A stretch of 64,000 nucleotides of DNA, from the NCBI RefSeq assembly GCF_003018255.1, contig NZ_CP027440.1; one strand, 5' to 3'. This document shows positions 39,950 to 40,482 of this stretch, piece after piece. This DNA is from Escherichia coli (GTDB lineage: Bacteria; Pseudomonadota; Gammaproteobacteria; Enterobacterales; Enterobacteriaceae). Below the pieces are notes generated by a model. That model made no database searches. It saw only the letters and a program-made list of their open reading frames with translations, and was not told the origin of the DNA. The position numbers and the translations under genes were made by a program. Each line of letters opens with the position of its first letter. Positions within the stretch are counted from its first letter, which is position 1.

Positions 39950-40482
39950 CTATGGTCCTGTGCAAAACATGTTATCGGTGATGAGATCGGTTTGAAACTG
40001 ACAGAGTTGGTTTTCCGCGCCGCCGATGGGCGGGTTGCGCAGTAAAAGCTGTGGATAGTGAGTTTTAATCGCCCGATAGATGACAGGAAGGACCTGGGCC
40101 CCGACCGAGGGGGAGGGCGCAATAGTTATCGTCCGTTGCTTATCATAGCTTCCTTCGATATCCAGCGCGCCAAGAATGGACTCAAGTCCCTGAGTGATAG
40201 ACTCATATAGATGCATCGCAAATGCGGTAGGAGTGACACCCTGGCCTTTGCGAATAAACAATAGGTCAGGGAATATAACGCGCAGTTTCTGAATAGGCTG
40301 ATAGATTGCCGAGGGGGGCAGATTAAGCACTTTCGCTGCATTAACGATTCCTTTATGGACATATGCAACTTCAAAATAGTCAGAAGGGTAAGATCAATAT
40401 TTCGTAAGGTTGTAAATATTTGTGGTTTACCTTCTGACGATTTTCTGCTTAAACAGGGTTCAATTTGATTATTACTATCCAC
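39950..40482 (-). pseudogene. ybeF: LysR-family regulator disrupted by a frameshift and 3' truncation
   Basis: N-terminus MDSNNQIEPCLSRKSSEGKPQIFTTLRNIDLTLLTI in one frame (track ORF 40126..40482) continues as ..FEVAYVHKGIVNAAKVLNLPPSAIYQPIQKLRVIFPDLLFIRKGQG.. in the -1 frame (track ORF 39950..40330); the shift falls in an A4/T4 run at ~40372-40377; the combined reading ends after ~160 aa, short of a full effector domain. Confidence 0.6.

Follow-up and report, generated by a model that had tools for sequence, protein, structure and literature searches.

The ybeF locus between lipA and lipB as a probable old, lineage-wide pseudogene in Escherichia coli

The ybeF gene in the stretch of Escherichia coli DNA analysed here (64,000 nucleotides, referred to as the window) is, at a probability that we put at roughly 95%, an old, fixed and lineage-wide pseudogene of a LysR-type regulator. 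It carries a single-base frameshift and a large internal deletion, both of which recur in roughly one in five complete E. coli genomes, and its remaining sequence has evolved under relaxed constraint.

Lesions and reading frames of the ybeF relic

The relic lies in the gene order tatE (plus strand), lipA, ybeF, lipB, ybeD and dacA (all minus strand), and was compared with the intact ybeF of K-12, O157 and IAI39, which encodes 317 aa and is annotated at 954 bp. Lesions were defined by aligning the lipA-lipB interval to K-12 MG1655, O157:H7 and IAI39. The interval measures 1023 bp in the window as against 1420 bp in K-12, in agreement with the spacing of only ~1.0 kb given in a preliminary description of this DNA, and the alignment yields two length differences, a T5 run reduced to T4 and a loss of 397 bp. 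The features of the locus are listed in Table 1.

The GTG at 40480-40482 is the same start as in K-12 ybeF and opens the YbeF N-terminus, VDSNNQIEPCLSRKSSEGKPQIFTTLRNIDLTLLT. Beyond codon 35 this frame (frame A) continues as an unrelated tail up to a stop at 40126, giving a 118-aa open reading frame (ORF). The YbeF reading is taken up in a second frame (frame B), which runs from FEVAYVHKGIVNAAKVLNLPPSAIYQPIQKLRVIFPDLLFIRKGQG to DNMFCTGP and a stop at 39950-39952; the longest ORF in this frame is 126 aa long and begins at a GTG within the helix-turn-helix (HTH) region. In K-12, the segment lost from the relic starts with TGCAC and is followed by a second TGCAC, forming 5-bp direct repeats of which the relic keeps one copy. 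The deleted segment corresponds to K-12 codons 174-306 (L002:1747-2143), is internal, and makes up 42% of the gene. The deletion is itself a frameshift because 397 equals 1 modulo 3. Downstream of the junction the reading ends in IDVIRNAF and a stop, which is the exact YbeF C-terminus.

The preliminary description had called ybeF a pseudogene on account of a -1 homopolymer frameshift and the loss of effector-domain sequence, with the HTH split over two frames at an A4/T4 run. Both lesions are found, and the break falls in an A4 tract where the intact alleles have T5. Its estimates of ~160 aa for the repaired reading and of about half the gene lost need correction: repair yields 177 aa, of which 175 are YbeF residues and 2 are extra, and what is missing is an internal 42% rather than a terminal truncation.

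Table 1. Features of the lipA-lipB interval in the window (positions counted from the first nucleotide of the window).
Feature	Position	Strand	Remarks
ybeF-lipA intergenic region (lipA upstream region)	39719..39926	-	Conserved; 1 substitution in 208 bp relative to K-12 and O157
ybeF relic	39927..40482	-	94% nucleotide identity to K-12 ybeF over 556 retained bases
Last 11 codons and ancestral TGA stop	39927..39959	-	Third frame, HRTIDVIRNAF and stop; out of reach of both upstream frames
126-aa ORF, frame B	39950..40330	-	GTG start within the HTH
Junction of the 397-bp deletion	39960..39964	-	Single surviving TGCAC copy (GTGCA on plus strand)
Codons 37-173, frame B	39965..40372	-	Remaining winged HTH, linker helix and start of effector domain; NF008554 profile 52-175
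Downstream copy of 9-bp direct repeat	40105..40113	-	CCCCCTCGG (CCGAGGGGG on plus strand); brackets the 205 bp lost in a subclade
Upstream copy of 9-bp repeat (40309-40317) and C6 run (G6 on plus strand, 40313-40318)	40309..40318	-	C7 in AVS0283-type alleles
Frameshift site, T4 on coding strand (A4 on plus strand)	40373..40376	-	T5 in K-12, O157:H7 and IAI39; one T lost at codon 36
Codons 1-35, frame A	40377..40482	-	NF008554 residues 1-38, profile 1-38 of 317
lipB-ybeF intergenic region (former ybeF upstream region)	40483..40741	-	Retained; 6% diverged from K-12

The products were scored against the NCBIfam model NF008554 (YbeF equivalog; PRK11482), which has 317 positions and a cutoff of 277 bits. 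K-12 YbeF reaches 609.8 bits over profile positions 1-317. The 118-aa ORF scores 38.6 bits (E = 6e-10; profile 1-38) and the 126-aa ORF 216.4 bits (E = 4e-64; profile 52-175); neither encoded ORF attains the family cutoff, and neither covers the profile from end to end. The repaired reading scores 308.5 bits (E = 4e-92; profile 1-175), and with E-values this low for the ORFs and the repaired reading a chance match is not at issue. The Pfam domain HTH_1 (PF00126) is found only in the repaired reading, at residues 32-89, and in no single encoded frame, and the repaired reading has no Pfam match to LysR_substrate (PF03466). The HTH is thus cut by the frameshift at codon 36, and most of the effector domain has been deleted.

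The relic shares with K-12 YbeF (b0629) its position between lipA and lipB, its strand and its GTG start, and differs from it in lacking one T at codon 36 and codons 174-306, in carrying 19 derived replacements, and in having no detectable LysR_substrate domain. Given its orthologous position, its colinearity apart from the two deletions and its nucleotide identity, the relic is a YbeF family member by descent. The second-best NCBIfam hit of intact YbeF is the E. coli paralogue CitR (YbdO; E = 1e-53), also LysR-type, which is reported to be ~30% identical to YbeF and, like ybeF, lies near citrate lyase genes. Origin of the relic as a copy of citR was rejected, as the CitR gene lies elsewhere in the genome and the score obtained here is far under the cutoff of CitR's own model.

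Distribution of the lesions and relaxation of constraint

Each lesion was looked for in a set of 5426 complete E. coli genomes. A 61-mer with the T4 run at its centre, matched exactly or with 1-2 mismatches, occurs in 1043 of them and, at megablast sensitivity, in none of the rest. Of the 5426 genomes, 4373 contain the 397-bp segment and 1053 lack it. The first 61-mer spanning the deletion junction returned just 489 genomes, since it mismatches the common AVS-type allele at 5 SNPs; a junction query of the AVS type added 558, so that the two allelic subtypes together account for 1047 genomes. These counts (1043, 1047 and 1053) were each obtained separately, and their agreement suggests that the lesions are co-extensive in ~19% of complete genomes. 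The run is T4 in all five deletion alleles that were sampled and T5 in all three intact alleles.

Named carriers include CFT073, LF82, NC101, ATCC 25922, ATCC 11775 and an O25b:H4-ST131 strain, all of which we take to belong to phylogroup B2. RefSeq, through PGAP, labels the gene "frameshifted; incomplete" in JNE23-011, AVS0283, ATCC 11775, CFT073 and LF82. The annotated ybeF pseudogenes of CFT073 (C_RS29815), LF82 (LF82_RS02970), ATCC 11775 (EAS44_RS25615) and JNE23-011 (ACXDC2_RS06205) have the T4 run and the 397-bp junction as in the window, and JNE23-011 matches the window at 100% identity along 1020 of the 1023 bp of the lipA-lipB interval. The ybeF pseudogene is therefore already recorded at the level of annotation, and it is a case of ordinary gene decay.

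Intact ybeF is found in K-12, O157, IAI39 and 2017.09.02CC; K-12, O157:H7 and IAI39 presumably represent phylogroups A, E and F, respectively. A search of a large protein collection with K-12 YbeF returned proteins of 317 aa (some of 314-324 aa), and all full-length homologues carry both PF00126 and PF03466. The proteins returned belong to, among others, Citrobacter, Salmonella, Kosakonia, Leclercia, Enterobacter, Lelliottia and Cedecea, and in the published gene order ybeF is flanked by lipA and lipB in E. coli, Salmonella, Klebsiella and Enterobacter (PMC4398509). The 317-aa YbeF is thus the conserved and ancestral form across the Enterobacteriaceae. The preliminary description had asked whether a gene of ~160 aa might be the conserved form; it is the 317-aa form that orthologues conserve, not a short one, and the pseudogene call stands.

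Read in the K-12 frame, the relic differs from K-12 ybeF by 21 nonsynonymous and 11 synonymous changes, a dN/dS of 0.58. The intact genes of K-12 and O157 give a dN/dS of 0.09 when compared along their whole length and of 0.05 when codons 1-173 are taken by themselves. A value of ~0.5-0.6 is what one expects when one of two lineages has been neutral since their split. Polarised against four outgroup YbeF proteins, 19 of 19 amino-acid replacements are derived in the lineage of the window, most of them at positions invariant in all four, and 17 fall within codons 37-173. Three of them, T56P, S61Y and S63P, hit the recognition-helix region LNLTPSAISQSIQKLR at positions that are invariant in all outgroups.

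Four sampled decayed alleles have 15 substitutions in common and are 1.5-2.3% apart, the window allele showing this same divergence from the common alleles of the clade. Since decayed alleles differ from each other as much as do intact alleles of different phylogroups (~1.8%), the inactivation is old. Taken together, the disruption of the frame relative to the conserved form, the relaxed constraint and the reality of the lesions suggest, on sequence grounds, that the ybeF relic is a pseudogene.

Decay has continued within the clade. The 205-bp segment between the 9-bp repeats is absent from 393 of the 5426 genomes; CFT073 and ATCC 11775 are among those that have lost it, unlike the window allele. 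The repeat measures only 7 bp in K-12; substitutions accumulating in the relic extended it to 9 bp ahead of the second deletion, so that drift itself made the substrate. In AVS0283-type alleles the C7 tract and the T4 run together re-fuse the frames into a single ORF of 177 aa, in which the 19 residues between the two shifts, lying across the HTH, are out of frame. This re-fusion is a matter of chance, and the HTH it encodes is scrambled. Each decayed allele has an ORF structure of its own (118 plus 126, 177, 117 and 113 aa), which argues against a conserved short product.

Origin of the decay and alternative explanations

Both lesions would have arisen in the ancestor of the clade that now makes up ~19% of complete E. 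coli genomes. The change from T5 to T4 at codon 36 fits polymerase slippage, and the 397-bp deletion between TGCAC repeats fits replication slippage or illegitimate recombination at microhomology. Either lesion alone would destroy the protein, the first by splitting the winged HTH and the second by taking away the greater part of the domain for effector binding and oligomerisation, with another shift of frame. Unconstrained drift would have followed, leaving the 19 derived replacements with prolines in the recognition-helix region, and later lineage-specific changes would have added a C in the C6 tract in one subclade and the further 205-bp deletion in another. The locus may thus be read as a case of stepwise decay, in which slippage at a homopolymer and a deletion at microhomology were followed by neutral drift and then by a second deletion at a drift-lengthened repeat. 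Functional YbeF is probably not made from the relic, and its loss was probably neutral.

We consider it unlikely that the loss was instead adaptive, a reading that alters the evolutionary cause and leaves the lesions as described. Selection in the ancestor of a clade rich in extraintestinal pathogens would then have fixed the rewiring of a regulon, such as lrhA together with the flagellar FlhDC genes. In K-12, deletion of ybeF changed the expression of 67 genes, lowering lrhA 3.5-fold and raising the FlhDC iModulon (PMC9068703), and both lesions are fixed over ~1050 genomes of a successful clade. Drift or hitch-hiking in the ancestor predicts fixation in the clade equally well, however, and the three ChIP-exo sites reported for K-12 YbeF did not include one at lrhA, so that the effect may be indirect (PMC9068703). 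In the literature searched we found no paper that treats ybeF as a pseudogene or mentions ybeF loss in the carrier clade. Selection for the loss finds no support in the present analysis. That a selected, clade-wide loss of YbeF shapes regulation in the clade today, whether motility and fimbriation through LrhA and FlhDC or citrate-linked metabolism, is a still more doubtful proposition; if true, ybeF would be a lineage-defining "anti-fitness" regulator and the relic its scar.

A functional truncated product is highly improbable. Two candidates can be named, the 126-aa ORF and a 177-aa protein that programmed ribosomal frameshifting at the T run would yield; such a product might work as an HTH-only regulator or as a dominant-negative partner for other LysR proteins. 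The 118-aa and 126-aa ORFs do exist, the repaired reading matches HTH_1 and scores 308 bits on NF008554, and the C7 tract of AVS0283-type alleles gives one 177-aa ORF, but the 126-aa ORF begins inside the HTH and lacks its first two helices, while the fused AVS-type ORF carries its 19 out-of-frame residues across the same domain. The replacements T56P, S61Y and S63P at outgroup-invariant positions of the recognition-helix region and the dN/dS of 0.58 also speak against a maintained product, as does the lack of any ORF common to the alleles, 393 genomes having lost another 205 bp. Neither programmed frameshifting nor phase variation holds up as an account of the T run: the CUA-UUU-UGA found there is not a slippery heptamer of the form X XXY YYZ, a run of 4-5 nt is too short, and the run is T4 throughout the ~1043 genomes.

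The least credible reading, raised for checking in the preliminary description, is that the T4 frameshift arose by error in sequencing or assembly and that the N-terminal half is truly one frame: although the break sits in a homopolymer, a typical site of error, the T4 61-mer is shared by 1043 complete genomes, each assembled independently, and by no others, the run length follows the deletion in five of five deletion alleles (T4) and three of three intact alleles (T5), PGAP also annotates a pseudogene, and the 397-bp deletion would leave the gene dead even with T5.

With old, clade-wide pseudogenisation as the preferred reading, regulatory-network models based on K-12 should not assume YbeF in the carrier clade, which is large and clinically important. 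The ybeF lesions could act as simple lineage markers. Beyond correct annotation, their significance is small.

Flanking genes and the wider window

The preliminary description had proposed that inactivation of ybeF may alter the expression of its neighbours, a suggestion that finds no support here. The lipA, lipB and ybeD genes are intact in the window with a dN/dS of 0-0.03 relative to K-12, and the 208 bp next to lipA are a single base off the K-12 sequence. The literature searched yielded no paper connecting YbeF with regulation of lipA or lipB, and neither gene is among the targets reported for YbeF in K-12 (PMC9068703). Nothing points to an effect on the lipoate synthesis genes.

That the lipB-ybeF intergenic region is 6% diverged from K-12 was considered as a sign of decay and dropped, as intact alleles also vary there (2-3.5%). 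This region holds two weak sigma-70-like matches, no more than expected by chance. For 39700-40760, a promoter scan returned 4 promoter-like sites where 2.7 were expected, which is uninformative; a terminator scan of the same range found none. An Rfam scan of 38600-41900 with E-values up to 1 gave no match inside the lipA-lipB interval. Its only hits were sub-threshold (leader and sRNA models, 20-31 bits) and clustered at 38687-38760, where tatE and lipA converge and a hairpin with T and A runs is most likely just a bidirectional intrinsic terminator. Within the 1023-bp interval, the sole difference between the window and JNE23-011 is at position 40739, 3 nt downstream of the lipB stop, where the coding strand of the window has G and all six aligned genomes have C.

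Elsewhere in the window, a ybeM-type gene for deaminated glutathione amidase (37526-38320, plus strand) is intact at 264 aa and scores 448 bits on NF033621 (cutoff 355). The same gene, ybeM, is annotated as frameshifted in the K-12 MG1655 record. Two genes apart, then, the window has an intact ybeM and a dead ybeF, and K-12 has the reverse.

No Clermont markers occur within the window. Positions 28000-52000 form a recombination mosaic, and no genome in the collection exceeds 99.2% identity to the window over these 24 kb. The segment 37995-40595, with lipA and the ybeF relic, is identical to JNE23-011. Between 28000 and 35000 the window and 2017.09.02CC, whose ybeF is intact, are nearly identical, at 0-3 differences per kb. 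Around pagP (35000-37000) the window is closest to LF82 and far, at 28-49 differences per kb, from JNE23-011 and 2017.09.02CC.

Between gltI and lnt, the window also carries a 625-aa ORF (59375-61252, plus strand) with a rhomboid-protease-like N-terminus (residues ~6-202) and beta-propeller repeats (~300-480). In IAI39 this ORF is missing and lnt follows gltI directly. In CFT073 a counterpart occupies this position and is annotated as a rhomboid family intramembrane serine protease.
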